A DNA stretch of 64,000 nucleotides from the NCBI GenBank assembly GCA_000004985.1, contig GG738915.1. One strand, given 5' to 3'. This document shows, piece by piece, positions 2-45,049 of this stretch. This DNA comes from Naegleria gruberi (lineage: Eukaryota). Below the pieces are notes generated by a model. The model was given only the letters and a program-made list of their open reading frames with translations. It was not told the origin of the DNA and ran no database searches. Each line of letters begins with the position of its first letter. Position 1 is the first letter of the stretch. A program made the position numbers and the translations under genes.

Positions 2-3000
2 TTAAATATTTCATTTGCTACCTTGTTCGGAAGTGAAGTTGAGAGTGGAAAGACAATTGTCTTGTTGCAACAACCTTGCTTTTTTGGAGTGGTGAGATTA
101 ATTAAAAAGTATTGTTTGGGAAAGAGTTGGATTGATGTCATTACATTTGAGAATATTGATGAATTGTTGGAAAAGTTTAAAAATTTTCAAAGTGCTGCTT
201 CTGTAAATAGAATTGTAATTTATCTTTGCTCTAATTATCAACCAAATTCGGGAAATATTTTGAGTGAAGGGGAAAAATCTGACCTTTGTAATCTTGTTTC
301 GAAGAATATAATTGAAACGACCATCATTGAAGATAATCCATATGATTTTCTGTATGGCACCGAGAAGAGGCCTAGTACTCTTTTTGAAATACTTCCAGAG
401 AAAACAACTTTAATTGGCGGATTTTCCAAGATTCTTGCTCCAGGAATTCGTGTTGGTTATCTGATTACAAGAAATCAATCATTCAGTGGAAGATTGTACA
501 GAGAGAAGATTGATCAGGACTTGTTTACTTCTACACTGAGTCAGCAAGTTTGTGCCAATGCTTTGCAAGATGTATCGTACCTGTCAGAGTGGAGAGCGTT
601 CGTTCAAAAGAGGGTTCAATGTACTGTTAAATTATTAGAAGAAATATTTGGTGAGGAAAAGAGGAGTGGAAAGATTGAATGGACTAATATTGAAAGTGGA
701 ATTTTTGTCTATTTGAGGTTTTTCAATTCCAATCACGAAGGAGTTGCAAGTATCCAAAAATTACTTGAAATCTCCAAGAATGATTTTGAGCTAGAGTTAG
801 AACCAAGTGGATACTGCTACTTGGATGGATGCTCGAGATTGGAGACTCGCATTAATATTATGCTTTGCGAGAGTGAAGATATTTTAAGAGAGGGCCTGGA
901 AAGATTAAAGATTGCCTATCACAAGTGGACCATCTCTCCAAATGAAACAACCAGCATTCGTTCTATAAGCACTGAAGAAGAAAAACCTAATAAGCAAATA
1001 CTCAAGGTTGTTATCACCTCTGGAGGAACTGCTGTTCCAATCGATTCAGTCAGATATATCACTAACAGCTCTACAGGCACAACAGGAGCTTTAATTGCCG
1101 AGGAATTTGTAAAGAGGGGCCATTTAGTTTATTACATTCACAGCAAGAATGGAAAAGTTCCTTCGAAGAAATATCCAAACTTGATTTTACTTCCTTACTT
1201 TACCTTTGATGAGTATCTTGAAGTTCTAAAACAAACCACCATTGAATGTAATCCTGACGTCGTCATTTTGAGTGCAGCTGTTAGTGATTATGGTGTACAA
1301 CAAGCTCATGAGGGAAAGATTAGCTCTGATCTCGACACTCAAACCCTTACACTTGTCAAGTTGCCAAAGATTATTTCCTTGGTGAAACACTGGAATCCTA
1401 AAGTATTTCTTGTCGGATTCAAATTGCTTGCTGGAGCCACTACTGAAACACTTATTGATACAGCTTACAAATCTGGTATTAGAAATCATTGTAACCTCAC
1501 TGTTGCTAACACAACCACAAAGGATGACATGTCTAATTTCGGAAAGAGAATTATTACCATCATTACACCAGAGAAGAGCGTCATTTCCACATCAGTGAGA
1601 GATCTACCAAATGCATTGACTACTCATGTCGAAAAGAGAGTCTCCCACAAACACTACAAAACAATTGTTATTCCCTCTGATCACAAGGATTACATTAATT
1701 ATGAAAAAGTTATGGGCGAATCCATTCAGACCATGTTCTCCAACATCCAAAAAGGATATACTTTGGGATTATTTGATAGCTATTTTAAGGATGAAACAAT
1801 TTCAGATATGAATTCACATTTTGGATTTGTAGCAATGCGTGCCCCAGAACCATATAGTGGCTTCTTGATTACTTCCAGAGGAAGTGATAAAAGTCAACCA
1901 AGTATTAAGGATATTACCTACATTTCCAAAGTTGATTTCCAAGCAAGAACTTTGCATGTTCATTCAACTCATAGACAAAAGGCCTCTCTCAATGCTAATG
2001 TTGCTGGATGGTTATTTGAGAATAGACCGTTGGTTAATTTGATTTTACATGCTCACATCTTCCCAAGTTGTGATAACAAGACTGATTTTGACTATTCACC
2101 AGGTACTCAAGAGGATGTCGATGCTGTAGCTAGAAAAATGTCAAACAATGAAAAGATTGTGGAAATACCAGATCATGGTGTCATTTCAGTCTCTAACAGT
2201 TCAAGAATTGAAGAGGCTATTGATGCACTCGGAGAAGGACACGCCTATTTCAAGTTTGCTCACCTCTACGATATGATCTATGCAAGATTCCAAAAGTCTA
2301 CAGATTTAATCGATATCTTGGATAGAGAATTTGAAAATAAGGAAAAGGTCAAGGTCTTGGATTTGGCTTGTGGAACTGGTGAAGTTTCACGACTCATGTA
2401 CGAGAGAGGACTCAAGAATATTACATTCGCCGATCAGAGTGACAAAATGTTGAACTATGCCCACAAAAAATTCATTGATAATTTTGGAGAGGAGATTTCT
2501 AATGGAATTTCAAAACATGTTACTTCCATGCAAGATTTGAAAGTCAATAATGAAAAATTCGACCTGATTGTCATAAGACAGGCCATAAATTATGCAATGA
2601 ATTTGGAAGGATTGGAAATGATTGTTAAGAATTGCTATGAGCATTTAAATGATGGTGGAAAATTAATTTTCAACACTACAAACTTTAAATTGGATCAGGA
2701 AGGTAAATTTGCCAAGTTGAGGGAATTGAATTATGTTGCCACAGATGGACATGTTGGTATTGCTTCCACTTCAAGAAATGAGCAAGTTCCCTTCGATGTC
2801 TACATTAGGGAAGGTAACTTGTTGTATAGAGTGGATTCTGATAAGGGTGAGAGAAAGGAAATTCGAATGTTGGTTCACGCTCAACATTGCGTTGTCGAGA
2901 GAGTCATTGCAGAAAGTGGTGATAACTTTATATTTGATAGACATGTTCTCTTTGATCTCAACAAATTTGGCATGTTCACTCAACAGGAAATCACCACTGA

Positions 3001-3115
3001 ATTACTCAATGCTCAATTCAAACATGTGAAATGTCTTGGAAAGGGTCTAATTGAAATCAATGAGGAAAATTCTAACACCTCACCTTCCCTCTACTTTGTT
3101 GCCACTAAAAATTAA
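2..3115 (+). CDS. 5'-truncated multidomain fusion protein with four parts: fold-type I (ARO8/2-aminoadipate-like) aminotransferase C-part, CoaB/DFP-like (phosphopantothenoylcysteine synthetase fold) domain, class II aldolase/adducin-like domain, and SAM-dependent methyltransferase
   Basis: The frame is open to the window edge; there is no stop from nt 2, and the M at 23 in the ORF track is a TTG. Aminotransferase motifs at ~nt 2-930: QPNSG, EDNPYDF, GGFSKILAPGIRVGYL (PLP lysine context). CoaB/DFP signature at ~1000-1580: VVITSGGTAVPIDSVRYITNSSTGTTG ... ILSAAVSDY ... LVGFKL. Class II aldolase-like motifs at ~1820-2235: FLITSRGSDK ... LILHAHIFPS ... IPDHGVISV. Methyltransferase motif I and downstream at ~2350-2700: VLDLACGTGEVS ... 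LNDGGKLIF. Stop TAA at 3113-3115. No intron is needed. Confidence 0.75.
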   Translation, partial: LNISFATLFGSEVESGKTIVLLQQPCFFGVVRLIKKYCLGKSWIDVITFENIDELLEKFKNFQSAASVNRIVIYLCSNYQPNSGNILSEGEKSDLCNLVSKNIIETTIIEDNPYDFLYGTEKRPSTLFEILPEKTTLIGGFSKILAPGIRVGYLITRNQSFSGRLYREKIDQDLFTSTLSQQVCANALQDVSYLSEWRAFVQKRVQCTVKLLEEIFGEEKRSGKIEWTNIESGIFVYLRFFNSNHEGVASIQKLLEISKNDFELELEPSGYCYLDGCSRLETRINIMLCESEDILREGLERLKIAYHKWTISPNETTSIRSISTEEEKPNKQILKVVITSGGTAVPIDSVRYITNSSTGTTGALIAEEFVKRGHLVYYIHSKNGKVPSKKYPNLILLPYFTFDEYLEVLKQTTIECNPDVVILSAAVSDYGVQQAHEGKISSDLDTQTLTLVKLPKIISLVKHWNPKVFLVGFKLLAGATTETLIDTAYKSGIRNHCNLTVANTTTKDDMSNFGKRIITIITPEKSVISTSVRDLPNALTTHVEKRVSHKHYKTIVIPSDHKDYINYEKVMGESIQTMFSNIQKGYTLGLFDSYFKDETISDMNSHFGFVAMRAPEPYSGFLITSRGSDKSQPSIKDITYISKVDFQARTLHVHSTHRQKASLNANVAGWLFENRPLVNLILHAHIFPSCDNKTDFDYSPGTQEDVDAVARKMSNNEKIVEIPDHGVISVSNSSRIEEAIDALGEGHAYFKFAHLYDMIYARFQKSTDLIDILDREFENKEKVKVLDLACGTGEVSRLMYERGLKNITFADQSDKMLNYAHKKFIDNFGEEISNGISKHVTSMQDLKVNNEKFDLIVIRQAINYAMNLEGLEMIVKNCYEHLNDGGKLIFNTTNFKLDQEGKFAKLRELNYVATDGHVGIASTSRNEQVPFDVYIREGNLLYRVDSDKGERKEIRMLVHAQHCVVERVIAESGDNFIFDRHVLFDLNKFGMFTQQEITTELLNAQFKHVKCLGKGLIEINEENSNTSPSLYFVATKN

Positions 3116-5443: not shown

Positions 5444-6946
5444 ATGGTCCTCAAGAATTTAATACCCTTCTTTAAGAGTGATAATAGCAACAATGATTCA
5501 CCTCCTCCCAACTCACCTACAACAACTATTCCACCAACAACTCAAATCTATCAGCCACCACCAACTCCAGAAAATAGACAACGAGATAATGATCAAATTG
5601 CAGCACTTGCATTGAGTCCAAGAAATCAACAAACTCAAAGACACTTTCGTTCTCCATCAATTTCCATTCCAACCACAAACAGCAACAATCAACAGCAACA
5701 ACCAACAAGTCCAACCAACACTTCTCCAACTACTAACAATACACGAAACAGAGCAATTAGTTCTCCTTTTTCATTCACCAGAAAGAGAGGAACCAGCAAT
5801 GTTTCGAATGGAAGTAATAACGGCAGTACAAGTCCTAGAGGCATTAATGGTGGTGCTTCATCTCCTCGTAATAGCCCTCAACAACCATCATCTCCAAGAA
5901 ACTTGGTGAGAGAACCAACAAGAGAAGAAAGAAGAAAGCAATTATTTAAAGAATTTGAAATGAAGAAAGTTGTCATTTATTCGAATTGTAAACGTTTGAG
6001 AGCTTTACTTGATGTTTTGATTGAAAGAGCTAAACCACATCAAGTTCAGAATGTTTCCTATGTTTTGGCACAAATGTCAGTTGTCGAAACGACTGGTTTA
6101 CCTCCAACCACTGAAAATGATCTTAAAGTTGTAAAGAGCGAATTGAATTCGATTAATCTGGAAATTTTCAGATTATCCTTGTTGATTTCTGAAAGCTACA
6201 AACAAGAAGTTTTACATCTGACAGGTGCCTCAACAATACATGACACGCGTTCACCAACAAGCATTGAAGATGAACAATTATTTGGAAATGTCAGCTGTGA
6301 ATCTGTCATTTTGAAAATAATTGGTAGAGAATTATCAGATCTTGAAAGAGATTTAGAAAGAATGCATCGTAGATGTAGAGGAAATAAGAAGAAACCTATT
6401 GAACAACCTATCCAACCTAAACGAAACAATTCCTTATTTGGAAGAAGAAGAGGAGCTTCTGCAATTGAAAGGCCAAGTAGTATGGTTCTTGGAAATCAAG
6501 ATTCAAAGAGAAGAAACTCTATGGAGTTTTATAGATCTTCAATAATTGATGAACTTGGTCAATCAGTGATGGAAAAAGTTATTGAGCGAGTTCAAAACAG
6601 TCAATTTAGAACTGTCACTAAAGAATTGCATATTGAACAGGGAATTTTAATGTTAATAGAGAAAAGATATGAAGAATTTGTGGATAAAATCAATAGATGT
6701 GACATTGACATTTATAATCCTGTCAGAATGTCAGATTTGAAATCTGAAACATTCTGGACAGATTTCCTCACGAAAAAGATGGCATTCACAGAGAATGAAT
6801 ATCAAAGTGCTCTTCAAAGTTTCTTAATTTCCAAGGAAACTGAAAATAAGAATCAAGAAGGTTCCTCGTCAATGGAAAATCAACTTTCGAATAGTAACTT
6901 TCAGATAGAGAATCGTTCTGAAGAAATTGACTTGTCTGTACAATAA
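5444..6946 (+). CDS. Hypothetical protein with an S/T/P/N/Q-rich N-terminal half and a helical C-terminal half
   Basis: Single 500-aa ORF with a true ATG at 5444 and a TAA stop. No family motif recognised. Its C-terminal half is collinear with the next gene (see findings). Confidence 0.6.
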   Translation: MVLKNLIPFFKSDNSNNDSPPPNSPTTTIPPTTQIYQPPPTPENRQRDNDQIAALALSPRNQQTQRHFRSPSISIPTTNSNNQQQQPTSPTNTSPTTNNTRNRAISSPFSFTRKRGTSNVSNGSNNGSTSPRGINGGASSPRNSPQQPSSPRNLVREPTREERRKQLFKEFEMKKVVIYSNCKRLRALLDVLIERAKPHQVQNVSYVLAQMSVVETTGLPPTTENDLKVVKSELNSINLEIFRLSLLISESYKQEVLHLTGASTIHDTRSPTSIEDEQLFGNVSCESVILKIIGRELSDLERDLERMHRRCRGNKKKPIEQPIQPKRNNSLFGRRRGASAIERPSSMVLGNQDSKRRNSMEFYRSSIIDELGQSVMEKVIERVQNSQFRTVTKELHIEQGILMLIEKRYEEFVDKINRCDIDIYNPVRMSDLKSETFWTDFLTKKMAFTENEYQSALQSFLISKETENKNQEGSSSMENQLSNSNFQIENRSEEIDLSVQ

Positions 6947-7680
6947 AAAATGTAAATTTTCTCTCTGTTTGAAATCAAAACTATTCGAAAAGCTAATATT
7001 TGAATATTTCAGTGCAATCTTTCGAATAGTATTGATCTGTCAATTTCTTACTCGAATATAACTGAAGTTGATTAATAGTAATTTAGTATTGAATCTAAAC
7101 TTATTATCTCTCAAATAACGGTGACATTAAACGCACATCATTATGATTAGTGACATACACCTTTAAAATTTACAAAAAATCACTTCACCCTAATCTCTCA
7201 CAATAAAAAAAATCCAAAAGCAAAACTCTGAAACGATCCTTAAATCAATGATGACACAAGTCAGCATCAATACAAGTCACTTGTCTCTCCCAAAAATTGA
7301 AACCTCCTTAATAAAATGAAATTCAAAATCTCCCGCCCTTTTCCCAAAGTATTCAACCTCACCTAACAATTGATATCTAAGGAATCTCTCTACTGAAAAA
7401 ATTAAAAAAAAAGGTCAACCGCGAAACCTGAAACTCTAGCCGTTCGTTGACGTTAGCTGCATCAAAAAAGAAGAGGCGACACCAAGAAGATTCATAACAT
7501 CGGATGATTGAATTGATTCAAAAACAGACAACCTTCAACAATTCATCCTTATCCGCTTGATCTTCCCAATTATCATCATTTGTAAATAATTTAATAAGAA
7601 AAAAGAATAAGAACAATACATTTAACTTCATCATCCAATTGAAGAAGAACATCAACAACAAGTATTCAATAACGAGTATT

Positions 7681-8661
7681 ATGATCATAATAAGTGGAAC
7701 GCGGGCAGATGATTTCGATCTGATACCCATGAGTCTCTCAGATAGTGGAGACACAACATCAATGAGGAGTTATGTTATTCAGAATCGAGCACTTCGTTCC
7801 AATTCTTTACAACCTTCATCACCCTCATCGTTTAGTCCTCAGTTTCCAAATAATCAAAGCAACTATTCAACTAATAGTACCACTTCGACAATGAGTGGTT
7901 CCAACTCAAATACATCTAAGAGAAATTCCTCACTTTCGCATCTGTGTTATTCGCAAGAGTTTGTGGAGAATCATTTGAAGAGTACAGCAGAGATGGCAAG
8001 TCAGTTTGAAATACGAAAAGTGCTCTTGATAGGTGCTTGTAGAATGTTTAAAGATTTTCTATTGAATTATAAGAAGGGCAAGTCAGATGATGTCACTGGT
8101 TTTATTCGAGTCAAGATTGAGTTTATTAGAACTGAATGTAAAAAGCTGTCCTTATTGGCAGAGACAATATATATAACTACTCCTTCTCATCACAGAAAAA
8201 TGGAGTGCTGTTGTAATGTCATTTCACAAATGGATATTATTAATGAGATTGTTGATAATCTCACTAAGATTGAACGAGATGCAGAGTGTCTTCACTCAAC
8301 CCTGAAACAGGGTGTTTCAAAGTCATTTCGGTCTAATTCTTTGGTATCGTTTTCGTATGATTTCCAAAGAGCTTCCACAGCACTGGAAGCTGTAGATGAA
8401 TTACCCTTAGAAAAAGGAATCACCCTGCTTCTCCTTAGAAGAAATCTCGAGAGGAGAACTAATCGAATGCTCACCAATACTCTCCTAGACCCAATCTCAA
8501 CCAAAGAAGACGAGCAAGCCGACAAGTTGTACCTGCAGGAAGAAATAGGACTCCTTCCCAAAGAATTTCAAACCACTCTTAATCGTTTCTACATGGCTCA
8601 ACGAGGTGGCTCTTTCTGTTCACTCACTGACTTGATTCCAGACGATTCCTTTGAAGATTAA
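7681..8661 (+). CDS. Hypothetical protein, divergent tandem paralogue of the 5444-6946 gene
   Basis: The ORF track starts at a TTG (7639); the first ATG in frame is 7681 (MIIISGTRADDF). Collinear similarity blocks to the upstream gene: EIRKVLLIGACRMFKDFLLNY vs EMKKVVIYSNCKRLRALLDVL, and TKIERDAECLH vs SDLERDLERMH. A further block is EKGITLLLLRRNLER vs EQGILMLIEKRYEEF. Confidence 0.55.
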   Translation: MIIISGTRADDFDLIPMSLSDSGDTTSMRSYVIQNRALRSNSLQPSSPSSFSPQFPNNQSNYSTNSTTSTMSGSNSNTSKRNSSLSHLCYSQEFVENHLKSTAEMASQFEIRKVLLIGACRMFKDFLLNYKKGKSDDVTGFIRVKIEFIRTECKKLSLLAETIYITTPSHHRKMECCCNVISQMDIINEIVDNLTKIERDAECLHSTLKQGVSKSFRSNSLVSFSYDFQRASTALEAVDELPLEKGITLLLLRRNLERRTNRMLTNTLLDPISTKEDEQADKLYLQEEIGLLPKEFQTTLNRFYMAQRGGSFCSLTDLIPDDSFED

Positions 8662-9391
8662 ATAAATTGCATTGCTCTTCAACTCTAATTAGAATCAAAA
8701 TTGTTAAATATCTAATCAACCCTGCATCATTTGAGGAGCAGCCCCCAAATATTACATGACCATTAGATTATAGTCCAATGAGCTTTGAGCCTTTCGCTCC
8801 ATAATATTGTTTTTACATATTTTTCTAAGGTTCCATTTCCAATTAGAAATCATATAGATACCATTTGGTAGCTTTGTTCTCCAAGCTAGAAATATTATTC
8901 AATTCCATGTGATAAAAAACATCGACAAGCAATACTGTTGGGCAGCAAAAAGAAGAAGAAACGAAGATTTTCTGTGAGAGCAAGTGTGTGCTTTGTGTGA
9001 CCATAATCTTCTCAACAATCTGAGAGAGAATTTTGGGAGTTCTCTTTGAATCATTCCTTTCCCAATTTAAACAAAAACAAAACCAAGAGTCGTGGACAAT
9101 CTTTTCAACAACAACAATACACAACTCCATCACCACAACAACAACAACCTGAGAAAGATTATTTCGGAATTAATTCGACCACAAACAAATAACAACAATT
9201 ACTCTAAGAAGTATAGTTTTATAACACATATACATCATCATTATCAATTTTTTGTACAGAACACAAAACTACATCATCATCACCAACATCATGATATTAT
9301 AAATAATAATAATAATTAAATCATCCGCATCAACCACTACCCAATATTATATACATCATCACATCATCACCAAGTAAATAAACACAACAAC

Positions 9392-12300
9392 ATGAATCAA
9401 CATTCACGTTCAACAAGATCATCATCCACTCCAACCCATAGCAATACCACCACAAGACAACCACAACAACAACAGCAACAACAATCAATTTTGCCACAAT
9501 ATAAAGATGTAATAGACAAGGTCAATGAGCCACTCTCACTCATCTACTTTGAATCGTCATCAGACGCAAAGGCTGCTAAAAGAACATTAAATTGGGGACT
9601 TTACTTTTACGAGCATGGTGAATATATTAAATCGAGAGAGGCTCTAATTAAATGTGGAGAAGTTATTTCGAAAATCAATTCTAAACTTTCTACCATTAAT
9701 AATAATAATGGCTCGACAATTTCATTATCATCAACAACATCTCAGGGAAATACAGAATTAGTACAAGGTAAGAGGAATTTTCAATGATTGCAAGTGTCAA
9801 TCAATTATAATGACAATTTAATTTACTTTAATAGTTGGAAAGGATTTACTTTATCGAATTATTCTACTTGTGGAATGTTTGGATAAGATTATGAAAGCAA
9901 AACATCAACAATCCATTGTAAAGAACCAAGCAACCAATTCACCACCTAAAACAACATCAAAACCAAATTCAACACCAACAAACAGTTCTTCTTCTAGTAG
10001 TAGCAGCACTCAGGGAACACTTTCTAGAATATCGAGTGGCATATTTTCAACAATCACGAGTAACTTTACATCTATCAAGAGTAATCTTCAGAAGGAGGGT
10101 TCCTCTTTGAATAATACTAATGGTAATAATGGTAGTAACTCGAAACTGATTCAATTATTCAACAATGTTGGAAATGTACTGAAAAAACCAAAGGAAGAGG
10201 TTGCAATACCCAATCTAGCAGACTCTTATGTACAGGATCAATATGTGTTTGTGGAATTTATAGATGAGAAGAAACCTAATGAGCAACAACAACATGTACA
10301 CAGCAATTTAACTAATTCTCCGAACGATGGAAACATCCCTCCTCTACAACAGGTCAGCTCCTCTAGGGATTCTCTCTCTAAATTACAAAAACGTTTGCAA
10401 ACTGTAATGAAAGGCTCCTCAACAACAACGAATACATCTTTACAACATCAACAACCACAACAGCAACAACAGGTAAATTTGACAGGTAGTGGTTCCTCCT
10501 TGTCAGCTTCCTCTCTTCCAGGTCCAATCAGATTATCCCTTGATGCCTTGCAAACATCAGCGTCTGCAACATCACCAAATGGAGAAGTGAAAAGAGGTCC
10601 ACAAACATCCAGACTCAAATCTTTTATTCAATACATGGAAGAGAGGAGTGGAACATGGAGTCCTGAAACAATTTCTGAGGAAGAGGTTAGGGAGATGGTG
10701 AGAGTACTCAATGAAAATTTAAAGATTTTGAGTACCTCATCAAATTACAAAACAATGGGAATTCTGGCACAAATGTACGATCAAATACGTCCCTATAAGA
10801 AGCAAGTTCTGAAAGAGCTCTCCAGTCAATCAACCAAAGACAAGAGCAAGAAGATTTTAATGTTAAAGAAAATTATTAGTATTGCATTTTCAACCAAAAT
10901 GGTAAATCACTATATTTCAAAAGAGGAAAATTATACAACACTTCAGGAAAATTTCCTTCAATATTTCGAGTTGGATCTCTTTACATTGCATTTGCTGAAT
11001 ATTTATGCAGCAGCTGAAAACTTTGATCACACAAACTTTTGCCTTTCACATCTAGTTGCTAACATTGAGCTATTTTCACAAGCAATTAATGATGTTAATC
11101 AATACCAAGTTGAGAAGAGACAAATTTACAAACAAGTGGATGAATTAATTTTTGGCCACCTCAGAAATAGAATAATCGAGTTGAAGTGGTGTTTTGGAGT
11201 TGACACGTTTGCATACGTGACTAATGATTTCGACAGTGACGCTCTCGAGTCACTAGAATTACTACTCAAGTGTCTTGATGGTTGGCTTAAAATCAAAACA
11301 CAAATGGGTGACTATAGTGTAAATAATAGACCAACAATAGCAGCCATTTTAACAGAATGTTTGGCTCATTTTGTAAGAAAATTGTACATTCTCAACAGAG
11401 AAATGATATCAAATAATTTGAAACAATCTCCTCATTTGAGAGGTTTCTTTTTGGAAGCATCTTTTGACATGAATCTCTCAACATTTGTTGTAGATGAGAC
11501 GAAACAATTGTGTTCTAGGTTTGCTTCCTACTTTGACAAGTATTTTGAAAATACTGCTCAATTTAAAGATATTGTAGCAGTCGAGTTTTCTAAACATTTA
11601 TCAGTGGAAGTTAAGGCATTCTGTCAGGAAGCTCTCAAATATCAACAGGCATGTATGGAACAAGCAAAGAAAAATAAGTTTTTGAGAGTTTACTTTAACG
11701 ACTTGAATTTGGGTGTTCTGAATAAGTTGGTGTCCCACTTTGTGACCAAGTACAGAATTCTTCAAGAACTGTCGCCATGTGTAAAAGATTTTGAAATTGA
11801 ATCTTTCTATGAAATTGTGAGTATGTGCATTACAGTTGCTACTCCAAACAGACTGAAAGATTTTTACTCAAAGGTCATGAGTATGGACACACTAGATAAA
11901 CCAATCGACAAGACAGTCCTTTATACATTCTCCTGTATAGATATGGCTAATGCAAGTCTCAAACCAATTCACATGATTTACAATTTGGACACTCTTATTA
12001 GAAATGGAAATGACAAGTATTTGAGTTTTTTAACTCTGCATTTTGAAGCTATTAGACCAACCATTTCCGAATATTTACAATTAATGCTCAATAGATGTAA
12101 ATATGAATTATCCAAAGTGCAGGGAAATGTCCATGACAGAATACGTTTAGCATGTATTGCCTTCAACAATGTCAATGGACTTTTCATGTATGCCAAAGAT
12201 ATCCTGCAACAATTTAACAGTTCAGTATGTGATCAACTGTTGGAAGACTATGACAGAAAGGTTAATCCAGAGGAAGAATCTGATCAGTTCAACATTAATA

Positions 12301-13226
12301 TACTCCAAGAAAAGTTGATTCAAGTTTATGATTTTCCAAGCGTAAAATCCATCACAAATGAGATAAGAATGGTCACTACAGATATGGCCTTCTTTATTGC
12401 TGACTGGTTGTATAATATGAATGAACAGAGATTTGAGGCAATTTTTAACATTGCATCCAATGGTTCACCTCAAGAAAAATTGTTCATTTTCCTGTCCTCT
12501 TTGGATAGGTTTTTTATGCATTTGTCAGACAATCTCTACTTGGAATTGTTACACGAGGTTCTACGACACTTATATGTAATCTATGTACAAAAATTAGTAA
12601 GAAACAAACTCTTAGGATACAAGCAAAAGAGTCCACTGAACGCCTCTGAATTACTTTCTCCTATTACTGGTATGGATGGTGCAACACCATTCTCTCCAAA
12701 TACATCACCAGTTCCATCACATTTTCCTACCTTTGAATCATCCCAGAAAGTAACTGTTCAATTATGTTTGGATGGACTCAAGGATTTATTCAATGCTTCA
12801 GGAGAAGGTTTGGATTCAAAATTCCTCGATCAACAATCACGAGAATTGGACATTTTAATATTGATCTATAATGACGAAACAGATATTTTGATTAATTTAT
12901 ATGAGAATCTTATTGGAGAAAGAGTTGATGATAAGTATTTAACAAGTCTCTATCAACGATTGGCACCTCAATCACCAAATTTGAACATGCCATCGTCTGT
13001 CTCAATGCCATCATTGGATGATAGTGATTCTATTTCCATAGCAAGTAGCAGCAGCTCTACAGATTCATTCATCCTGCTTTCACTCCAAGAGGCCATCAGT
13101 AGTAAGAGAAAGAATTCTGATTTCCTTTCTCCAGAACTTATTCTCCTCCTACTCAATCAGAGGAAGAAAGATAGAACAGCTAGATCATATGCAAGAAGGA
13201 GACTGAAAGAATTGAAAGAAAAATAA
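9392..13226 (+). CDS. Large hypothetical protein (1255 aa), mostly helical, with a possible N-terminal MIT-like helical segment
   Basis: join(9392..9767,9835..13226). The 67-nt intron is GTAAGA..AATAG in phase 1 and joins the two listed ORFs in frame (3768 nt). PolyQ (CAA/CAG, 9464-9484) and S/T/N-rich linkers are present. I did not recognise any catalytic motif. The MIT-like guess rests only on DAKAAKRTLNWGLYFYEHGEYIKSREALIKCGEVISKI. Confidence 0.6.
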
Positions 13227-13281: not shown

Positions 13282-15529
13282 TTATTTGGTGTTTGGAGTA
13301 TCAACAAAATCCCAACGTGAGCAGTCAACAACCAATGACTGTGCCAATAATAATCTCATTTTACAAATCCTATCGTCTGGATCAATGCTAGCAACTTGTT
13401 CTAGTAGTTGCTCTGCAGAAATAGGATCAAACCTATCTCGGCAAAATAAGTGGGAAATAGCTTTCTCAAACATTTCTTTAGTTGACCGTTTCTTACAATT
13501 TTCAAAAGGTATAATTTCCATAATTTCTACGTAATTTCTCTTACCCACTACACAGATTTTCCCAATCGATCGACAACTCCCTCCCTCTCCCAGAAAAATC
13601 GGTGAACAAGAATCAGTTACACTTTTCGATACTAGAATCTTGGCATCGTAATATTTCGTCAGAGATTCTAATCGAGCAGATAAATTGACTGCATCCCCAA
13701 CTATGGTTGGATCCATTCTCTTTGACTCTCCAATCAAGCCAACTGCACATCGTCCTCTGACAATTCCACATCCTATTGAAATAGGACCAACGATTGGTGA
13801 CACACTCTCATTAAAAACCAGAACACAATTTTGAATTTCAATCGATGCTTTCAGTGCATGGCCTGGCTCTGTAAATAGGGCAATAAATCCATCACCTTAA
13901 TAAAGTTCGTTCATAAATTTCTAAATTCTCGAATGAACATACCCATATATTTATCAATATATCCACAATTTCTCCTCACAATCGGACCAACCAAAGCCAA
14001 ATATCGATTCAATAATTTGAACATTTGATCAGTTGGTAGCCTCTCACTCATTGAAGTATAATTTCGAATATCAACAAACATAATATCCAACTCCTTCTCA
14101 AAGAAATCACCATGATGCAAATCTGTCACCTTCTGCTTATTGATAATGGACATGAATTCTCGTGGCACGAATTTGTAAACCATATCCTCTTGGAGACGCA
14201 ACATTTTCTTCCAAGGTCCTAGAATAGTTTTCGAAAATAGCAACGCCACCAATGCTGCCACAAGAACCACAATTACTATAACAATGGTAAATGCAATTAA
14301 TGAATCGGTAGCATTCAAACCAATTTGATTCGAATAGTCTAATAAGACCAATCTCATTCGATCTTCCACAATCCCTAAAAGAATTCATGCACAGAGTCAT
14401 GTTAAAAAACCATTCTTCAAGTGTATACTTTGTTAAATTTTGATAATTATCCAAGACATAATCTTCCATACTCTGACAGATATTTTGCTGAGTATCATTG
14501 AGAATATTTGTAAGGAATTCTGTGTAAATTTCATTGGATGCCTGAAGAGAGAATAAGTGTCGAACCAAGATTCCCTATAATACATTTAAAGATTTTGGTA
14601 AAAGTTGTTTTTCTTACACCACAATATTCAAAATTACTTACTTTAATGACTGCTTCTTTGAATGAATCAATCGAAGCTTGAGACAAACTTCCATTCATAA
14701 ATCCAAATGTTCCATAAATTCTTCTAATTCCTCGATATTCCCTAGCTGCGGAAAGTAAGTTGAATGAATTGTGAATTATTGCAAAAGTTGGATCCAAACT
14801 TTGACTTGTTACAACTCTAATCATATCATTGATCAAAGAATCCCAATCGTTGATGTATTGGATTGTTGGTAAAAAGGTTTCGTTCGTAACATTCTCCACT
14901 TTCATTCTCCACTCTCCAACACCTTTCGAATAACCAATGACCTTTCCCAAATAATCCTCAAACAAATACCACGTCCTTTTCCACTGTTCATTAATCAAAA
15001 TATCGTTTGGGCTTACCGAAAGTGCGAAGAACCTTTCGATAGCATTGTCAGTTCGATTTCTTGCTTCAGCTAATTCAATTGTATACTGCCTCTTATGAGA
15101 ACCTAGATAAAGAGATGTGATTCCTCTTTCATTTTGCAAACAATCACCAAGTTCTGAGAGATGCATTGTCACTCTTGATAGTTTTTTAATCTCATTCGCA
15201 TGGTTCAAGTTGACCGCAGCAGAATTAATCAGTAAGGCACCAAATACTGCCATAGGAATCAAGCAAAATGCAATAATGAGGGCCAATTTAATGATGAGAG
15301 GTATTTTCTCCAAGATTCTTATTGGAAAGAAACTATTAAACAAGGATTTGTTCATTATGGATTGAGAAGTTATTTTGGATTTGTGTCCTTTCTCAGTGAT
15401 TGGAACTGTGGTTGATGGTTCCTCGAAGGTATCTGGTACAGTACCAGATATACGTTTTGCATGCAATGTTCTTTCTGCATTGTGTTCTACTTGTTGTTGT
15501 TGGGGCGTTTCAATATTCGAAACCTCCAT
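13282..15529 (-). CDS. Receptor-type class III adenylate/guanylate cyclase: TM, NIT-like sensor domain, TM, then cyclase catalytic domain
   Basis: complement(join(13282..13895,13943..14374,14472..14574,14642..15529)), 2037 nt = 678 aa. Introns are 67 nt (GTAAGT..ATAG), 97 nt (GTATGG..TTTAG, the least certain junction) and 47 nt (GTATGT..TAAG). NIT-like motif: LQNERGITSLYLGS. The sensor region is flanked by hydrophobic helices (LIIKLALIIAFCLIPMAVFGALLI and IAFTIVIVIVVLVAALVALLF). Cyclase motifs: DIMFVDIRNYTSMSE, and YIDKYMG|DGFIALF restored across the third intron. A further cyclase motif is GLIGESKRMDPTIVGDAVNLSARLESL. Confidence 0.8.
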
Positions 15530-16440: not shown

Positions 16441-17790
16441 ATGAAAAAGAAAATGAATCCATTTGCCTTGCTTGATTTCCATTTGCCTCATAGATTTTCC
16501 TTACATGGTACGGAATCAAAGTATTTTGATCAGGTGCATGTTACCAAGGCCAATGATGAACATACTACTCTACAGGCAGTTGTTGGTGGTGATTCACCAA
16601 CTTGTTTAAAAGAAGAACAATCTTTATGTAATACTAATAATAATAATGGCGGAAATTGCTCCCCTTGTAATACTATGACCAATATTAGAAATAATACATT
16701 AAATAATCAAAGTGATGGATGTTGTCTCACTGAAGAAGACTCTGAAATATTGAATTGTTACTACAGTTCATCCATGTTTCTTCATGTGATCGCAAGGCAA
16801 GAGCTTGAACGTTTCTTACAAGATTCATCATCCAATTCCTCAAAGGCCAACACTCTGGAAATGATAGAAATGATGACCTTGTATTATTCCATCAAGGCAA
16901 CTTGTGAACTCCAGATGGGACGAATGGACAAATATGAAATCTCGGGAATGAAGGCAATGGAGAATCTTGTCAAACTTTCAAGTACAAACTTGGCGATTGC
17001 TGGAAGCTACCTTAATATGTGCTTGCTTGAATTGTGGAATGATAGATTTGATATTGCAAAATTGTATTTTGCAAAGGTTATGACCTTCAAACCATACTTT
17101 GAGAATGCATCGGAAGGACAGTATGAGTACAAATTATTGAAAGATGACCTCAATATCTCAGTCAAGTTATTGGAGTATACTCTATTCAATGCTGATGTTA
17201 ACAATCTTCATCATTTATTGTTTGAAAGGTTTCTTGTAAATTTACCAACTCTCTTTTCGTATTATAGAACTGGGCAAGCGCTCATTAATGAATGGAACCA
17301 CATTCTAAAGAATCCTCACCTTATCAATTCATCAAATTGTATGCAAGTTCATATGCTGATATTGACACTCTTGAGGGATTGTAAAAAGTATGAAGAAGAT
17401 ACAAAGGGACGATCAGAAAATCTCACTTTACTGTACGACTTTTTGGAAAGTGGGATAACATTGGCTCTGTTATCCAAATGCTCTGAAAAAACGCCCATGA
17501 TTGAGTATACCATTGAATCAAGTGCAAAGAGAATTGTCAAGTCAATTAAGAATCCAAATTTTGAATCTGCTCCATTTGAAGTGATCATTTATCTTTCATT
17601 TGCTGCAGAGCATCACTTGAAAAGGATTCTACAAGGTGTTTTATCAAGAGACTCGATGAATTATGTTGAAATGCTTCGAGATACACTCAATGCATACAAA
17701 TCTCTTCAATCCAGATTTAAAATAGCCAATTTTTACTATTATGGGGGAGTATTCCAACAAGTGGATTTATACTTCTGTAATAAAGCGTAA
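16441..17790 (+). CDS. Paralogue of the adjacent Zn2Cys6 factor that lacks an intact zinc cluster
   Basis: Single 449-aa ORF with a true ATG. It shares the N-terminal MNPF[AL][LV]LDFHL motif and ~330 aa of collinear C-terminal similarity with the 18007 gene. Examples: LYYSIKATCE[LC]QMG, LPTLFSY, KNPHLI[ND]S[ST]NC, ALLSK, YLSFAAEHHLK vs HISFAAEYHLK. Only scattered Cys (GGNCSPCN...DGCC) sit where the cluster would be. Confidence 0.7.
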   Translation: MKKKMNPFALLDFHLPHRFSLHGTESKYFDQVHVTKANDEHTTLQAVVGGDSPTCLKEEQSLCNTNNNNGGNCSPCNTMTNIRNNTLNNQSDGCCLTEEDSEILNCYYSSSMFLHVIARQELERFLQDSSSNSSKANTLEMIEMMTLYYSIKATCELQMGRMDKYEISGMKAMENLVKLSSTNLAIAGSYLNMCLLELWNDRFDIAKLYFAKVMTFKPYFENASEGQYEYKLLKDDLNISVKLLEYTLFNADVNNLHHLLFERFLVNLPTLFSYYRTGQALINEWNHILKNPHLINSSNCMQVHMLILTLLRDCKKYEEDTKGRSENLTLLYDFLESGITLALLSKCSEKTPMIEYTIESSAKRIVKSIKNPNFESAPFEVIIYLSFAAEHHLKRILQGVLSRDSMNYVEMLRDTLNAYKSLQSRFKIANFYYYGGVFQQVDLYFCNKA

Positions 17791-31985: not shown

Positions 31986-34900
31986 ATGAGAGAAACAAAG
32001 AGATCCCCATCCGCTGCTTCTGCCCTTGATGAGAGTGCAACGGTGCAGGGACTTAGTAGATTCAAACACTTTCATAGTGCAAGTGCTCCCGAATCTTTAG
32101 GAGTAGATAAACTTGAGGTAAGTGAATTCAAAACGAGGAAGTAACCAACAAGCTCTCTTATAGTACAAACCTAAGAATACATACAACGTTAGACCAAAAA
32201 CTACAATACAACCTCAAAAATTAAAGATACCTAAGGAATTACAACAATTTAATCATTTAGACCCATCTAGAAACACAAGTACAAAGAAGAGGTAAGAATA
32301 TCATAACTGAAATCAATTATTAAAAAATGATTTAATTAAACAGAGAAACTAGTACTACAACAACAAAAAGAGCATCAGCACAAGAAAAATCAAGAAAAAC
32401 ATTGGAAGAAAGACCACCAAAACAAGCCAAATATACTACCAGTGTCAGTAGATTGTCTGAATTGAACTCTTTGAATGTTAGTGCTAGAATCGGAGCCCTC
32501 AAACAAATGGATGTTGAAGAAGGAACAATTGATGTAGCTAGTTACCCAAGACTTTTAATTATTAACAAGGAATTTTCGGAAGAGGAAAAGGATATCATCA
32601 TGAGTGGGTATGTATTAATAAGAGGAATTTAATTAATAATTATGAATTGAACAGACAAGAGATTGAAAGCAAGAGCAAATTTCTACCATTAGAATTGTTT
32701 GATGACGAAGAAATATTTGAAAAATTCACTATTGAAGATCTTCTTTCGAATAGCTACATTGTACAGTCTAAGTTTTATACTGGCGCCAAATCAGCTTATG
32801 AAAAATCTTATAAGGTTTGTTTCATATTATTACTAGTGATCTAATCAAAAAACAGTGGGCTCGTTGCAGAGTTCTTGAATATAATCCTGATGAAAGAAGT
32901 TTCCTTATTGAATGGTTAGATTCTCCAAACACAACTGGATATGAAATTACAACAACTGATGAAAACAATGACTCTCCAACCACTACTAATGGCAGAAAAC
33001 AAAAATGGGTAAAAAGATTGAATTTATTAGTTCATGGAGATGAAACTTTTGAATTGAGAATAAGATTTGCACAAATGAGAAGAAAAAAGTTTGAAGAGAA
33101 AATGTTTTATTATCTTCAAATTGACAAGACTATTACTGATGACTTGATAGATATTACCCCTTTTGAAAAACAAATTTATGAAAAAATTTTGAAGCTTGTT
33201 GCAAATGAATCCCAATTCCTTTCTAGGCATGTTCCAGTCATTGAAAAATATGTTGATGAAGCAAAAGAGCATTACAAAATTTCAATGAAAGAGGCTATAT
33301 TTTTGTATTATCTGAACAGTAGAGAAGAATATGAAAAGTATGAAAAATATTTATGGTGCAAAGAAGAGCTAAGGAAAAATAATATGACAGCACCATGTTC
33401 TGGTGTTATTGAGGTACCAGCCTATAACTATCAAGCCATTCACGATATTATTGAACAAAATATCTTTTATACTCACCTTGATTTGATAACAGCAATGCAT
33501 AATATTCACTCTCAATTATTTATTTTGCTTAAAAGCTTAAAGGAAGATGGAAAGAGTATGGACTTGATTACAACACAAAAATGTGATACTCCTTGTGAGT
33601 TAGGATCATTTTTGGAGCTCCAAAGAGATACATTACAATTATCCATGAAAAGAATTAAGGAAGATTGGTGCCAAAAAGTTATTTCGATAGTGCAAAATGA
33701 TCTTGATAGATTTTTCAACTTTTTCGAAGATGATATTGAAAGATTCGAAAGCTCTAGAATGAAGAAGTTCTTGAGATTGACCAATTTCGTTCTTTCAGCT
33801 CAGTTAAGAGATTATGTTTTTGATGAACTTCACAAGTTGAGAGACTTTATAATACCTTATAGATACAGAGGATCGGATCATTTTGATGCCAATGAAGTTT
33901 CTGGATTTGAACCTTTATTTATTATCAAGATTGTGGAGAAAATTGAAAATGGAGAATCTAAGATTGCATTCGATCCTCCACTCGAATCTGTATTAGATGG
34001 CTTACGACAAATATTTTATGGAGTGCTGGAGGAAACCAATTTTATTCCAGGTATAGGAGAGACTCTCTTCCCATTATTGACTCTTAAGCCAGAACAATAT
34101 TGTATAAATAACTTAGAACTAAGATTAGAAAAAGACACAAAAGGTTTATGGAAAGATATTCAAGAAGTAATTACTTCCAACTTTAGAGAACCAGAAATGT
34201 TGCTCTCCTTATATAAGGGATATGAACATTGCTTAAAGTTGGATCCAGTCGCGTTTGCTACAGAATTTTATAATGAACATGTTGGCAAAACAGAAATGTC
34301 AAAACTTCTTTCAATCTTTAGAGAAGAATTGGCAAGACTTAAAAGTGATTCAGAAGAAGTGTATAACATTTCAACTGATAATGTCAATTTCAACTTATTG
34401 CGAGTAGATTGCAGTGGTATCAAAAACTCACTATATTTGAGAACCGATGGTACTGCAAAAGAGTTGATGAAATTAATATCAAAATGGAGTACTGAAGAGA
34501 GTAGTAAAATTACTCAATCTTTCCGAGATGTATATAGCAAAGTTCAAATCATACCTCAAACTGCTGAAGAACTGGACTCTTTAAAGAAGTACTTAACAGA
34601 TTGCACAAAGGAAATTGAAAGATTACAATCTCAATTCGCAACAGTCAAATCAAGTGTCCATTTACTCTCAGATTTTTCATTCAACCTCGACATGGATGAT
34701 TTTACAGTATTTGTAGATACTCATTCATGGCCAAAGAAGGTTTATGGACTTCTTGAGGATAGTACTATTAGACTTGAAGAAGACAAGAGAAAATTCATGG
34801 ATGAATTACAAAGAGATATCAATAATCTTCTCAGCAACTTGGATTTATATGAAAAGATTATTGAACGATTTGCTGTTTTCGATGATTTAGAAAAGACAGA

Positions 34901-43900: not shown

Positions 43901-45049
43901 GAGGATGGTTACCAACTTTCACCTTCCGGTATTTACACTGTTCCAAATGGAGATAAGAAACATAGTGAATATATTCAAACAATCGAAAAATTCCCATCAA
44001 GCGAAACTCCAGAAGTATTTGGTTTGCACGAAAACGCTACCATTAGTAAGGATCAAACTGAGTCTAAACTAATGTTTGATGCATTACTTACCACTCAACA
44101 AAATAGTGCTCCTGAAACCAATGATGAAGATGACATTAATGAAAATTCTCATGAAACTGAAGTACTTTACGAATTAGCAGCAGATATCTTGACTAAACTC
44201 CCTGACAACTTTATTATTGAAGGAGATGGTGGCGCAGAGGCCAAGTTCAAGGTTGACTATCACGAAAGTATGAACACTGTATTTGTACAAGAGTTAATTA
44301 GATTTAACAAACTTTTGAATGCTATTAGAAACAGTCTTCAACAATTACAACTTGCATTGAAAGGTCTCACAGTCATGAGTAGTGATTTGGAACAATTGAG
44401 CAAGTCTCTTTCAAATGGTAAGGTACCTCTTGTATGGAGCAAGGCCAGTTATCCTTCTAGAAAACCTCTCAGAACATATATCCAAGATTTGATTAAGAGA
44501 ATTGAATTCTTTAATAATTGGTTTATTCATGGTAAACCATCAGTGTATTGGTTGAGTGGTTTCTACTTTACCCAATCATTCTTGACAGGTGTAAAGCAAA
44601 ACTTTGCCAGAAAGAATAAGATTGCTATTGACCAAATTGATTTTGAATTTGAAATTTTGGACAAGTACTATGAAGAAAACATTTCCTTGCCAGAACCAGA
44701 ATGTGGTTGCTATGTTTATGGATTGTTCTTGGAAGGTGCTGCTTGGGATAGAAAGAAGAAGTGTTTGACAGATCCAAGACCAAAACAATTGTTTGATGAA
44801 ATGCCAATAATTTGGTTCAAACCTGTAGATCGTAGTGTTGAACAAACAGAACCAACAAGTTCAGAGGTTAAAACCAAATCTAATACCTATGTTTCACCAC
44901 TCTACAGAACTAGTGAAAGAAGAGGTACCCTCACCACAACTGGTCACTCGACTAACTTTGTGATGAGTATCAAGTTGCCAATGGCCTCAGATAATAATGA
45001 AAAGTATTGGATTAAGAGAGGATGTGCCTTACTTTGCCAACTTGATTAA
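31986..45049 (+). CDS. Axonemal dynein heavy chain, inner-arm (single-headed) type, ~4292 aa, with one frame discontinuity
   Basis: join(31986..32117,32164..32291,32344..32607,32655..32814,32856..42365,42365..45049). Four 5' introns (46, 52, 47 and 41 nt; donors GTAAGT, GTAAGA, GTATGT, GTTTGT) keep the frame. After that there are ~12.2 kb without introns. AAA1 P-loop [20 protein letters not shown] (36813-36836); GAPEG is the inner-arm flavour. AAA2 GFPMSGKT (37656), AAA3 GPTGTGKS (38721), AAA4 GVGGSGRQS (39852). A coiled-coil stalk and a conserved C-terminal domain follow. The two long ORFs (frames 0 and 2) join only by a -1 shift at the A5 run 42361-42365, giving ...TTKEK|MLDDDTVINTL... Confidence 0.9.

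Follow-up and report, generated by a model that had tools for sequence, protein, structure and literature searches.

Coenzyme A (CoA) biosynthesis is regarded as a solved and universal five-step pathway, the second step of which is catalysed by phosphopantothenate-cysteine ligase (PPCS; CoaB). A gene of Naegleria gruberi raises the question of why such a ligase should be joined in a single polypeptide to three enzyme modules of other kinds. The gene lies at the left edge of the stretch of DNA that was analysed here, 64,000 nucleotides of contig GG738915.1 (assembly GCA_000004985.1; hereafter the window). It encodes, in this order, a class I aminotransferase (AT), a CoaB/PPCS module, a divergent class II aldolase-fold module (ALD) and an S-adenosylmethionine (SAM)-dependent methyltransferase (MT), in agreement with an initial annotation, which had read four catalytic-type modules from the sequence. 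Our best explanation, for which we see the case as evenly balanced, is a CoA-linked enzyme that combines PPCS with a conserved accessory unit made up of the transaminase, the ALD and the MT. Such a coupling of a second-step CoA enzyme to three uncharacterised modules, by fusion or within operons, is found in ultra-small symbiotic archaea and bacteria as well as in Naegleria, a genus that includes the brain-eating N. fowleri with its orthologue FDP41_001389.

A resident Naegleria gene of probable prokaryotic ancestry

On the + strand the frame is open from window position 2 to the TAA stop codon at 3113..3115 (+), which closes a gene of 1118 codons. The probability of meeting no stop across the 1037 codons inside the window is ~1e-34 at the base composition of the window. 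The translation agrees at every position (100 % identity) with residues 82-1118 of N. gruberi XP_002670424.1 (NAEGRDRAFT_81838), which databases name only 'hypothetical protein' or 'methyltransferase domain-containing protein'. The gene is thus cut at the left window edge, as had been supposed, and the missing part comprises 81 residues only. Further domains upstream, which had been thought possible, are not present: a metagenomic contig that is colinear with the window and 99 % identical to it (L041; loci are designated L and proteins P throughout) places the start methionine 81 codons further leftward and carries in-frame stops 6-7 codons 5' of this methionine, so that the N-terminus is closed.

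An apparent fusion could also result from mis-assembly, read-through, separate products or bacterial contamination, in which case the modules need not be coupled at all. The gene model of the N. lovaniensis orthologue (C9374_004708; P0015) speaks for this, as it is shorter and stops at residue 626, within the CoaB module; it is probably a curtailed annotation. Against it, the same order of four modules recurs in N. gruberi, in N. fowleri (P0002; 54 % identity), in the independent metagenomic contig mentioned above and in bacterial contigs. Moreover, conservation is unbroken across the module junctions, the predicted structure is compact, and the long stop-free frame speaks against it as well. 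The GC content of the gene (0.364; 0.33 at third codon positions) matches that of the neighbouring genes, and the open reading frames (ORFs) downstream in the window are eukaryotic, encoding MORN repeats, a Zn2Cys6 domain, a protein kinase and an ABC transporter. Contamination and mis-assembly are ruled out by these eukaryotic flanks, by the matching composition and by the presence of the gene in three Naegleria species, and we regard an artefact of any kind as hardly conceivable. NAEGRDRAFT_81838 is a resident N. gruberi gene, probably of prokaryotic ancestry. In neighbour-joining trees the Naegleria proteins group with the bacterial four-module proteins of L004 and L042 inside an otherwise prokaryotic family. 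Because of this grouping, the ameliorated composition and the occurrence in three species, the sequences indicate an old horizontal acquisition of the already fused gene by Naegleria, albeit with modest tree support. The N. fowleri orthologue carries several long low-complexity insertions in its AT and ALD modules.

The ligase module and its coupling to a transaminase

The CoaB module spans 974..1678 (+) and resembles the monofunctional 'type III' ligases. PF04127, which had been predicted for the translation, is indeed found with E = 1.5e-35 and 123 bits against a cut-off of 22 (residues 334-510 of the fragment), and the closest solved relative is the monofunctional CoaB of S. pneumoniae (2gk4; E = 2.4e-31). 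In line with this, the module, taken from an AlphaFold2 (AF2) model of the three C-terminal modules and compared by Foldseek, reaches TM-scores of 0.77-0.80 to the CoaB structures of E. coli, M. smegmatis and S. pneumoniae (1u7z, 6th2 and 2gk4). Alignment with residues 181-406 of E. coli Dfp locates the nucleotide-binding signature ITSGGTAVPIDSVRYITNSSTG at 1013..1078 (+), with the equivalents of R206 at 1052-1054 (+) and of N210 at 1064-1066 (+). The AAVSDY motif, which covers E. coli A275/A276 and D279, and the lysine equivalent to K289 (1316-1318) follow at 1274..1318 (+). The latter region is invariant or nearly so across the family, and all of these residues are kept in the window protein; the roles of N210 and K289 are those established by published mutagenesis. 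At the C-terminal end of the module stands a conserved linker, RVSHKHYKT (1637-1663, +).

To place the gene among its relatives, we searched an ALD profile against 1.84 billion representative proteins, which gave 276 matches at E <= 1e-10, of which only 58 reached E <= 1e-30. Typing of the retrieved set yielded 48 proteins of the architecture CoaB-ALD-MT, 32 of CoaB-ALD, 19 of ALD-MT with a CoaB remnant and 10 (8 distinct clusters) of AT-CoaB-ALD-MT, together with one each of CoaC-CoaB-ALD-MT (P0044), CoaC-CoaB-ALD (P0094), NUDIX-CoaB-ALD-MT (P0046), ALD-MT-CoaC (P0073) and ALD-MT-AT with the AT at the opposite end (P0070). In a protein search, likewise, CoaB-ALD-MT proteins of ~660 residues were numerous, and only a few four-module proteins appeared besides those of Naegleria. 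From these counts CoaB-ALD emerges as the conserved core, to which MT and AT are recurrent additions, and the unit has repeatedly been fused to bona fide CoA enzymes. With about eight clusters among 1.84 billion representatives, the four-module architecture is, as the initial annotation required, neither common nor functionally annotated; the database names of the relatives each refer to one domain ('phosphopantothenate-cysteine ligase', 'methyltransferase domain-containing', '2-aminoadipate transaminase' or 'hypothetical').

When named genomes and metagenomes were scanned and the modules then mapped, ~27 non-redundant evaluable loci were obtained, those from named genomes belonging to DPANN archaea, to bacteria of the candidate phyla radiation (CPR; Falkowbacteria, Sungbacteria, Microgenomates, Parcubacteria) and to a gammaproteobacterial metagenome-assembled genome. 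Six gene orders can be distinguished. In type A (L001, L005, L010, L012, L044, L047) a class I AT gene, in some cases preceded by a NUDIX gene, is followed by CoaB-ALD-MT. Type B (L002, L006, L008, L049; permuted in L007) reads Amidohydro_2, CoaC, CoaB-ALD-MT, and type C (L050) reads Amidohydro_2, an unassigned gene, CoaC, AT, an unknown gene and CoaB-ALD-MT. In type D (L022) Amidohydro_2 and a canonical CoaC-CoaB are followed by AT, an ALD protein with a CoaB remnant, and MT. Type E (L013-L016, L020, L054-L056, L059) consists of CoaB-ALD, MT and a class IV aminotransferase, and type F is the full fusion AT-CoaB-ALD-MT (window, L004, L042 in a bacterial context, and L043). Genes that encode the modules separately overlap one another by between a few and ~30 nucleotides, in the manner of translational coupling. 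The functional coupling that the fusion had been taken to imply is strongly supported by the prokaryotic relatives, in which the genes adjoin or overlap or are fused in a different order.

Is the CoaB module then a genuine PPCS? The initial annotation had suspected that it may not be. On this reading it would be a repurposed amide-forming ligase of a separate small-molecule pathway, the product of which would be built by transamination, ligation, methylation and chemistry of the aldol or dehydratase type. Sub-threshold scores against the PPCS equivalog models would fit this proposal, as would the many loci of types A, E and F without a nearby CoaC, one locus with P450, non-ribosomal peptide synthetase-like and radical-SAM neighbours, and the nearest relatives of the MT, which are natural-product tailoring N-methyltransferases that often follow an aminotransferase (TylM1, DesVI, CalS10, daptide methyltransferase). 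However, every PPCS catalytic residue is kept, with a loss in P0004/L043 only. In addition, in a neighbour-joining tree of CoaB modules the stand-alone CoaBs of DPANN archaea that follow CoaC (L017-L021) nest inside the fused clade, so that the module groups with ordinary CoaC-linked ligases. CoaC adjoins in 7 of the 27 loci, directly upstream and sometimes overlapping in L002, L006, L008, L049 and L050, and downstream in L007; P0044 and P0094 join ALD-MT and ALD, respectively, to a complete CoaC-CoaB. The L022 operon is headed by a canonical CoaBC, the sole complete ligase there, next to the ALD protein with its CoaB remnant, which leaves no dedicated second ligase at that locus. The unit also occurs in genome-reduced DPANN and CPR organisms, where secondary metabolism is rarely kept, and a NUDIX protein resembling CoA diphosphatases lies within the cluster. 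The suspicion is thus not supported; a repurposed ligase is improbable, and the CoaB module, judged by its conserved residues and its relatives, is probably a working PPCS. In L001 a gene of the phosphopantetheine adenylyltransferase/CoaE type lies 1 kb away. As a separate candidate function, we also considered the ALD as a replacement for CoaC; this is ruled out by the fusion of CoaC, CoaB and ALD in P0044 and P0094 and by the co-occurrence of CoaC in seven loci.

Two known ligase systems come closest to the window protein. Bifunctional CoaBC (Dfp) of bacteria and archaea has the same CoaB fold and catalytic residues and likewise fuses cooperating activities of the CoA pathway, and relatives of the window protein adjoin or are fused to CoaC. 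Unlike CoaBC, the window protein itself has no CoaC, and no function in the CoA pathway is assigned to its partners AT, ALD and MT. The type III CoaB of Streptococcus and Enterococcus (2gk4; TIGR02114/PRK06732), with CoaC encoded separately, is the top match (TM-score 0.80, 33 % identity); in contrast to it, the window module does not reach the equivalog cut-offs, sits inside a protein of 1118 residues and continues through the extra linker RVSxxHYKT into the ALD. The ligase itself is of a known kind, while its obligatory coupling to an enzyme trio and the ALD subfamily described below appear undescribed.

The AT module (2..973, +; residues 82-405 of the 1118-residue protein) was assigned to the KAT-II/LysN/PH0207 subgroup of class I (fold type I) aminotransferases by a tblastn module map, by phmmer against the PDB (1vp4, 2.8e-18; PH0207, ~3e-15; LysN, 1e-12) and by PF00155. 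This family had been predicted for the translation; it is detected on the full-length protein, whereas the 5'-cut fragment in the window gives no Pfam match. The alignment with PH0207, TM1131 and LysN extends over ~355 residues (about 22-383), and MsAT is matched as well. The pyridoxal phosphate (PLP)-lysine motif GGFSKILAPGIRVGY at 416..460 (+), with the Schiff-base lysine at 428-430, aligns with TFSKILAPGFRIGW of PH0207 and with TM1131. It is accompanied by SNYQPNSG (230-253, +), EDNPYD (329-346, +) and the carboxylate-binding arginine of ETRINI (848-850, +). The motifs GFSKILAPGIRVGY, EDNPYD, SNYQPNSG and TRINI all have counterparts in PH0207 and TM1131 and are kept in homologues. Thus the PLP lysine, the Asp/Tyr, the Asn and the carboxylate-binding Arg are all present, the roles of these residues being presumably those generally known for class I aminotransferases.

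A transaminase adjoins or is fused in 21 of the 27 evaluable loci. Hereby, the class I enzyme occurs in archaeal-type loci, while CPR and gammaproteobacterial loci carry a non-homologous class IV enzyme, which scores at the IlvE equivalog cut-off. That the same activity is supplied by two unrelated folds is strong evidence for coupling at the level of the pathway rather than chance adjacency. The AT is N-terminal in the window protein, P0003, P0005 and others, and C-terminal in P0070. According to a first neighbour-joining tree the N-terminal fusion might have arisen twice, whereas the tree of CoaB modules unites the four-domain proteins; as the trees disagree, we claim an independent fusion for the C-terminal AT of P0070 only. 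In L014 (Microgenomates) the class IV aminotransferase is split into two ORFs, 8005-8442 and 8583-8921 (145 and 112 residues), suggestive of a frameshift, of a pseudogene or of faulty assembly.

The aldolase-fold and methyltransferase modules and their possible chemistry

The ALD module (1679..2248, +) was recognised by fold search and by a family profile against the PDB. The profile finds FucA at 6.8e-6 and the MtnB-like aq_1979 (2irp) at 1e-4. For a structural model of pLDDT 91.6, the 50 best-ranking PDB matches have, without exception, the class II aldolase/adducin fold, with E values down to 3e-8 and TM-scores of 0.55-0.61. PF00596, which had been expected here, is missed by the window copy (15.0 bits for the whole protein and 20.8 bits for the module alone against a threshold of 22.2) and is matched by 18 of 19 relatives (best E value 3.8e-14). 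The module contains the motifs FGFVAMR (1820-1840, +) and FLITSRGSDK (1862-1891, +) as well as a metal site of His-Ala-His (2048-2056, +) and a third histidine (2174-2176, +), and this His-x-His...His triad (H143, H145 and H185 of the module) is invariant. In contrast, the residue that serves as catalytic acid/base and fourth metal ligand (Glu73 of FucA, Asp76 of AraD; 'PSSE') is replaced in the MT-associated subfamily by an invariant Asn ('KASLNA'), in the window at 1991-1993 within KASLNAN (1979-1999, +). The Asn of the phosphate loop is replaced as well, and new invariant basic residues (Arg/Lys) appear. CoaB-ALD proteins without MT keep the canonical signature (GNxSxR, KPSSE/D), as confirmed for P0094 against FucA, and the Asn-substituted ALD is always paired with MT. 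Standard aldolase or dehydratase chemistry, as originally envisaged for this module, is therefore unlikely.

Among class II aldolase/adducin proteins, FucA, AraD, MtnB, OtnC/YgbL, HMPDdc and the non-haem-iron enzymes TqaM, NovR and POD share the fold, the metal triad and the G-[ST]-x-E loop with the ALD. In some of these proteins the metal serves to bind four-carbon phospho-acids, in others, such as TqaM, NovR and POD, 2-oxo or 2-hydroxy acids. The ALD subfamily differs from them by its low identity (12-18 %), the Asn in place of Glu/Asp, the new Arg/Lys residues and its constant tie to CoaB. An identity with MtnB of methionine salvage was considered for the ALD and rejected, since it shows no preference for MtnB over FucA, AraD and decarboxylases, the acid/base residue is lost and no Mtn genes recur among the typed neighbours.

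The MT module (2249..3112, +) belongs to a class I SAM-dependent clade with 1wzn, TylM1, DesVI, CalS10 and GSMT. The predicted PF13649 and PF08241 were detected with E = 4e-14 and 7e-12 at residues 785-890, and the daptide N-methyltransferase model of NCBIfam is matched by 19 of 19 family members. Motif I, VLDLACGTG, lies at 2354-2380 (+), the Asp of motif II at 2432-2434 (+) and an invariant RQAINY at 2576-2593 (+); in the family alignment G48, T49, G50 and D68 of the module are invariant. Over its full length the MT profile retrieves 1wzn (1.9e-23), 1y8c, 3d2l, ToxA/XrdM, DesVI, TylM1, CalS10, GSMT and CypM from the PDB, and the modelled fold reaches TM-scores of 0.75-0.79. The relatives also include C-methyltransferases (PsmD, SeMT) and uncharacterised methyltransferases. 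An AF2 model of CoaB-ALD-MT predicts a compact assembly (pLDDT 89.9, pTM 0.88).

Taken as a CoA-linked enzyme, the protein might work as follows. CoaB, predicted to be a CTP-type PPCS, would activate the carboxylate of 4'-phosphopantothenate as acyl-cytidylate, which would be attacked by the amine of cysteine. An aliphatic amino acid would be converted to its 2-oxo acid, or the reverse, by the transaminase; Val, Leu and Met are substrates common to IlvE and the KAT-II/LysN/AvtA-like enzymes. The ALD could then chelate a 2-oxo (or 2-hydroxy) acid at its three-histidine metal site and enolise it, and the resulting carbanion might be captured by the methyl group of SAM through the packed MT, or by a one-carbon aldehyde. 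The product would feed one of the two PPCS substrates. To our knowledge, the sole established link between a branched-chain 2-oxo acid and PPCS leads from 2-oxoisovalerate via ketopantoate and pantoate to 4'-phosphopantothenate, and a supply on the pantoate side is for this reason favoured. In this version, which we put forward tentatively and would not expect to hold, the gem-dimethyl pantoate half of 4'-phosphopantothenate would derive, without need of folate, from valine through 2-oxoisovalerate or a 2-oxo acid related to it. Such a supply would be attractive in folate-poor DPANN and CPR organisms that lack PanB. More broadly, AT, ALD and MT may form an unrecognised branch of CoA biosynthesis common to DPANN, CPR, some other bacteria and, through gene transfer, Naegleria, be it a PanB- and folate-independent route to pantoate or one to a methylated phosphopantetheine or CoA; this is possible, though we lean against it.

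Chemical precedent comes from the 2-oxo-acid C-methyltransferases, which need a Lewis-acid metal for enolisation of the substrate, a task that a zinc site fulfils in SgvM (PMC10502145). Methylation of a metal-bound 2-oxo-acid enolate as described there would use parts that are present in the window protein. As in the MrsA/MrsB, SgvM and GlmT/IlvE cassettes, a transaminase is co-encoded with a SAM-dependent methyltransferase, and a class I or IlvE-type enzyme can serve. Unlike SgvM, the window MT belongs to the 1wzn/TylM1-like clade and appears to lack both the N-terminal helical dimerisation domain and the His2 zinc site described for SgvM (PMC10502145), and in contrast to the beta-methyl cassettes the metal would come from a separate module, the ALD. 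The closest likeness of the MT itself is to the TylB/TylM1, DesV/DesVI and daptide aminotransferase/methyltransferase pairs, in which the methyltransferase too acts just after the transaminase. The transaminases of those pairs are of the DegT type or other families and act on nucleotide-sugars or peptide termini, whereas the partners here are alpha-amino-acid transaminases (KAT-II/LysN-like or IlvE) in a CoA context. We know of no beta-methyl amino-acid cassette that is linked to CoaB. As the initial annotation had presumed, no characterised pathway with this architecture came to light, and searches within the accessible literature returned nothing on the architecture, the locus tags or the CoA genes of Naegleria.

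Two further explanations compete for the same evidence. In the first, PPCS is genuine and the trio serves the cysteine or sulfur side: the transaminase would make cysteine from 3-mercaptopyruvate, or beta-methylated cysteine by the logic of MrsA/MrsB; alternatively, an MtnB-like module, a transaminase for 2-keto-4-methylthiobutyrate (KMTB) and a SAM user tied to sulfur economy would form a unit resembling methionine salvage. The AT stands directly beside CoaB in fusions and operons, and CoaC, which requires a beta-thiol amino acid, occurs in the same operons. Both class I and class IV aminotransferases include methionine-regenerating enzymes. The ALD profile match to the MtnB-like 2irp also fits, as does the fact that cassettes of an aminotransferase and a SAM-dependent methyltransferase yield beta-methyl amino acids, the MrsB-type model TIGR04544 being matched at 1e-16 to 1e-18. 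However, cysteine is not a typical substrate of IlvE-type or LysN/KAT-II-type enzymes, and the MT has no obvious role in cysteine synthesis. For the salvage version, MtnA, MtnK, MtnC and MtnD do not recur in the neighbourhoods, the sole APH-family kinase (in L016) gives no MtnK signal, and the ALD, with its acid/base residue gone, is equally close to FucA, AraD and decarboxylases. We therefore consider a cysteine- or sulfur-side function rather unlikely.

In the second, a thiol (that of phosphopantothenoylcysteine, phosphopantetheine, CoA or cysteine) would be bound by the three-histidine metal of the ALD and S-methylated by the MT, after the pattern of zinc-dependent thiol methylation, to give a modified or inactivated pantetheine species, and the transaminase would handle a by-product. 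The nearly constant fusion of ALD to CoaB, where the thiol product forms, would be well explained in this way, and so would the retention of the metal triad despite loss of the aldolase acid/base, the invariant Arg/Lys residues, which suit a ligand bearing phosphate or carboxylate, and the tight ALD-MT pairing in a compact predicted assembly. On the other hand, we know of no role for S-methylated pantetheine species, the consistent presence of a transaminase of either fold is left unexplained, and the canonical aldolase residues of CoaB-ALD proteins without MT suggest an ancestry in carbon chemistry. Such a zinc-thiolate tailoring is thus very doubtful.

Several observations weigh against PPCS with an accessory unit as well. 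On the side of the ligase, the NCBIfam equivalog models (PRK06732, TIGR02114 and TIGR00521 were compared) are matched below threshold, PRK06732 with 148 against 265 bits and the others with 138 against 217 and 112 against 220; such scores are expected for a divergent lineage, and the module is not an automatic equivalog. The 64-kb window contains neither CoaC nor a separate PPCS or phosphopantothenoylcysteine decarboxylase, no search having been aimed at a eukaryote-type PPCS elsewhere. In P0004 the CoaB module is degenerate while AT, ALD and MT are intact, and L022-type proteins keep only a CoaB remnant, from which it follows that the accessory chemistry needs no CoaB catalysis in cis. On the side of the trio, 6 of the 27 loci have no adjoining aminotransferase, and most of the characterised enzymes closest to the MT are N-methyltransferases (TylM1, DesVI, CalS10, GSMT, CypM, daptide methyltransferase) rather than C-methyltransferases of 2-oxo acids. 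Finally, no reductase, kinase, PanB, PanE, PanC/PPS, PoK or PanK recurs among the typed flanking ORFs, many flanking ORFs being untyped, so that the cluster alone would not encode a complete pantoate route. If the unit nevertheless supplies or modifies a PPCS substrate, it would fill a missing precursor supply for CoA in organisms without the classical pantoate and folate enzymes and would partly explain the CoA source of minimal-genome organisms. It would also show what chemistry a new class II aldolase-fold subfamily carries out and provide a candidate target of prokaryotic type in a eukaryotic pathogen lineage.

Neighbouring genes and further observations

Genes of the NUDIX family accompany the unit in L005 (770-1360), L012 (834-1394), L044 (1320-1901), L047 (1735-2292), L019 (5421-5996), L022 (2024-2503, -) and L016 (9350-9889), and in P0046 the NUDIX domain is part of the fusion. 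The L022 protein is most similar to the CoA diphosphatases AtNUDT11, NUDT7 and the D. radiodurans enzyme, and contains a near-match to the NuCoA signature LTxRx4Rx3Gx3FPGG. This suggests that genes for the turnover or recycling of CoA accompany those for CoaBC. In L019 the gene order is CoaC, NUDIX, CoaB.

An Amidohydro_2 gene (PF04909) is constant in the DPANN CoaC/CoaB operon with or without ALD-MT and also occurs in one Falkowbacteria locus. It lies at 6599-7417 in L002, 4591-5439 in L006, 8322-9185 in L007, 2609-3448 in L022 and 3729-4562 in L050, and is likewise present in L017-L021, which lack ALD; no solved relative was found for it at E < 0.01. In three archaeal-type loci (L008, 5376-6005; L010, 5424-6005; L050, 6745-7299) a conserved protein of 184-209 residues is encoded between the AT or CoaC gene and CoaB-ALD-MT. 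It has the motifs RQAQSCxYLE, HRRQYxDL, IQAVSYLRGxDRYxLLK and WRH, matches no Pfam or NCBIfam family and may be an additional component of the pathway. A divergently transcribed protein of 270-300 residues, with weak AbrB/MazE-like N-terminal and PhoU-like matches, stands beside CoaC/CoaB in 13 archaeal loci (L002, 5582-6493, -; L006, 3398-4267, -; and 11 more, including L027-L029 of Thaumarchaeota) and is a candidate regulator of the CoA operon.

The typed neighbours include a regulator, isoleucyl-tRNA synthetase, transposase, integrase, FBPase and radical-SAM enzymes. A gene for isoleucyl-tRNA synthetase (a class I aminoacyl-tRNA synthetase with DUF5915) adjoins in L008 (8392-11541, -) and L009 (3130-6303, -) and lies within 5 kb in L006 and L013, one of the loci being from CPR; this could be simple synteny or a hint at branched-chain amino acids. 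A DDE transposase (L009, 24-1223, -) and a phage-type integrase (L010, 8233-9468, +) flank CoaB-ALD-MT in these two archaeal-type loci, consistent with a mobile unit of patchy distribution across domains. On the 134-kb contig of P0022 (JGI 3300047160) AT and CoaB-ALD-MT lie beside a cytochrome P450 and a protein with AMP-binding, PP-binding and acyltransferase domains, together with two radical-SAM proteins and a eukaryote-like protein kinase, a context unlike that of the DPANN and CPR loci.

Elsewhere in the window, the ORFs at 5444-6946, 7639-8661, 9870-13226 and 16441-17790 (+) and at 14531-15529 (-) comprise four long ones without a Pfam match and one with a NIT (nitrate/nitrite-sensing) domain, which is unusual for a eukaryote. 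An ORF of 3252 residues at 32817-42575 (+) overlaps the start of one of 894 residues at 42365-45049 (+), and the two may belong to a single gene interrupted by an intron or a frameshift.

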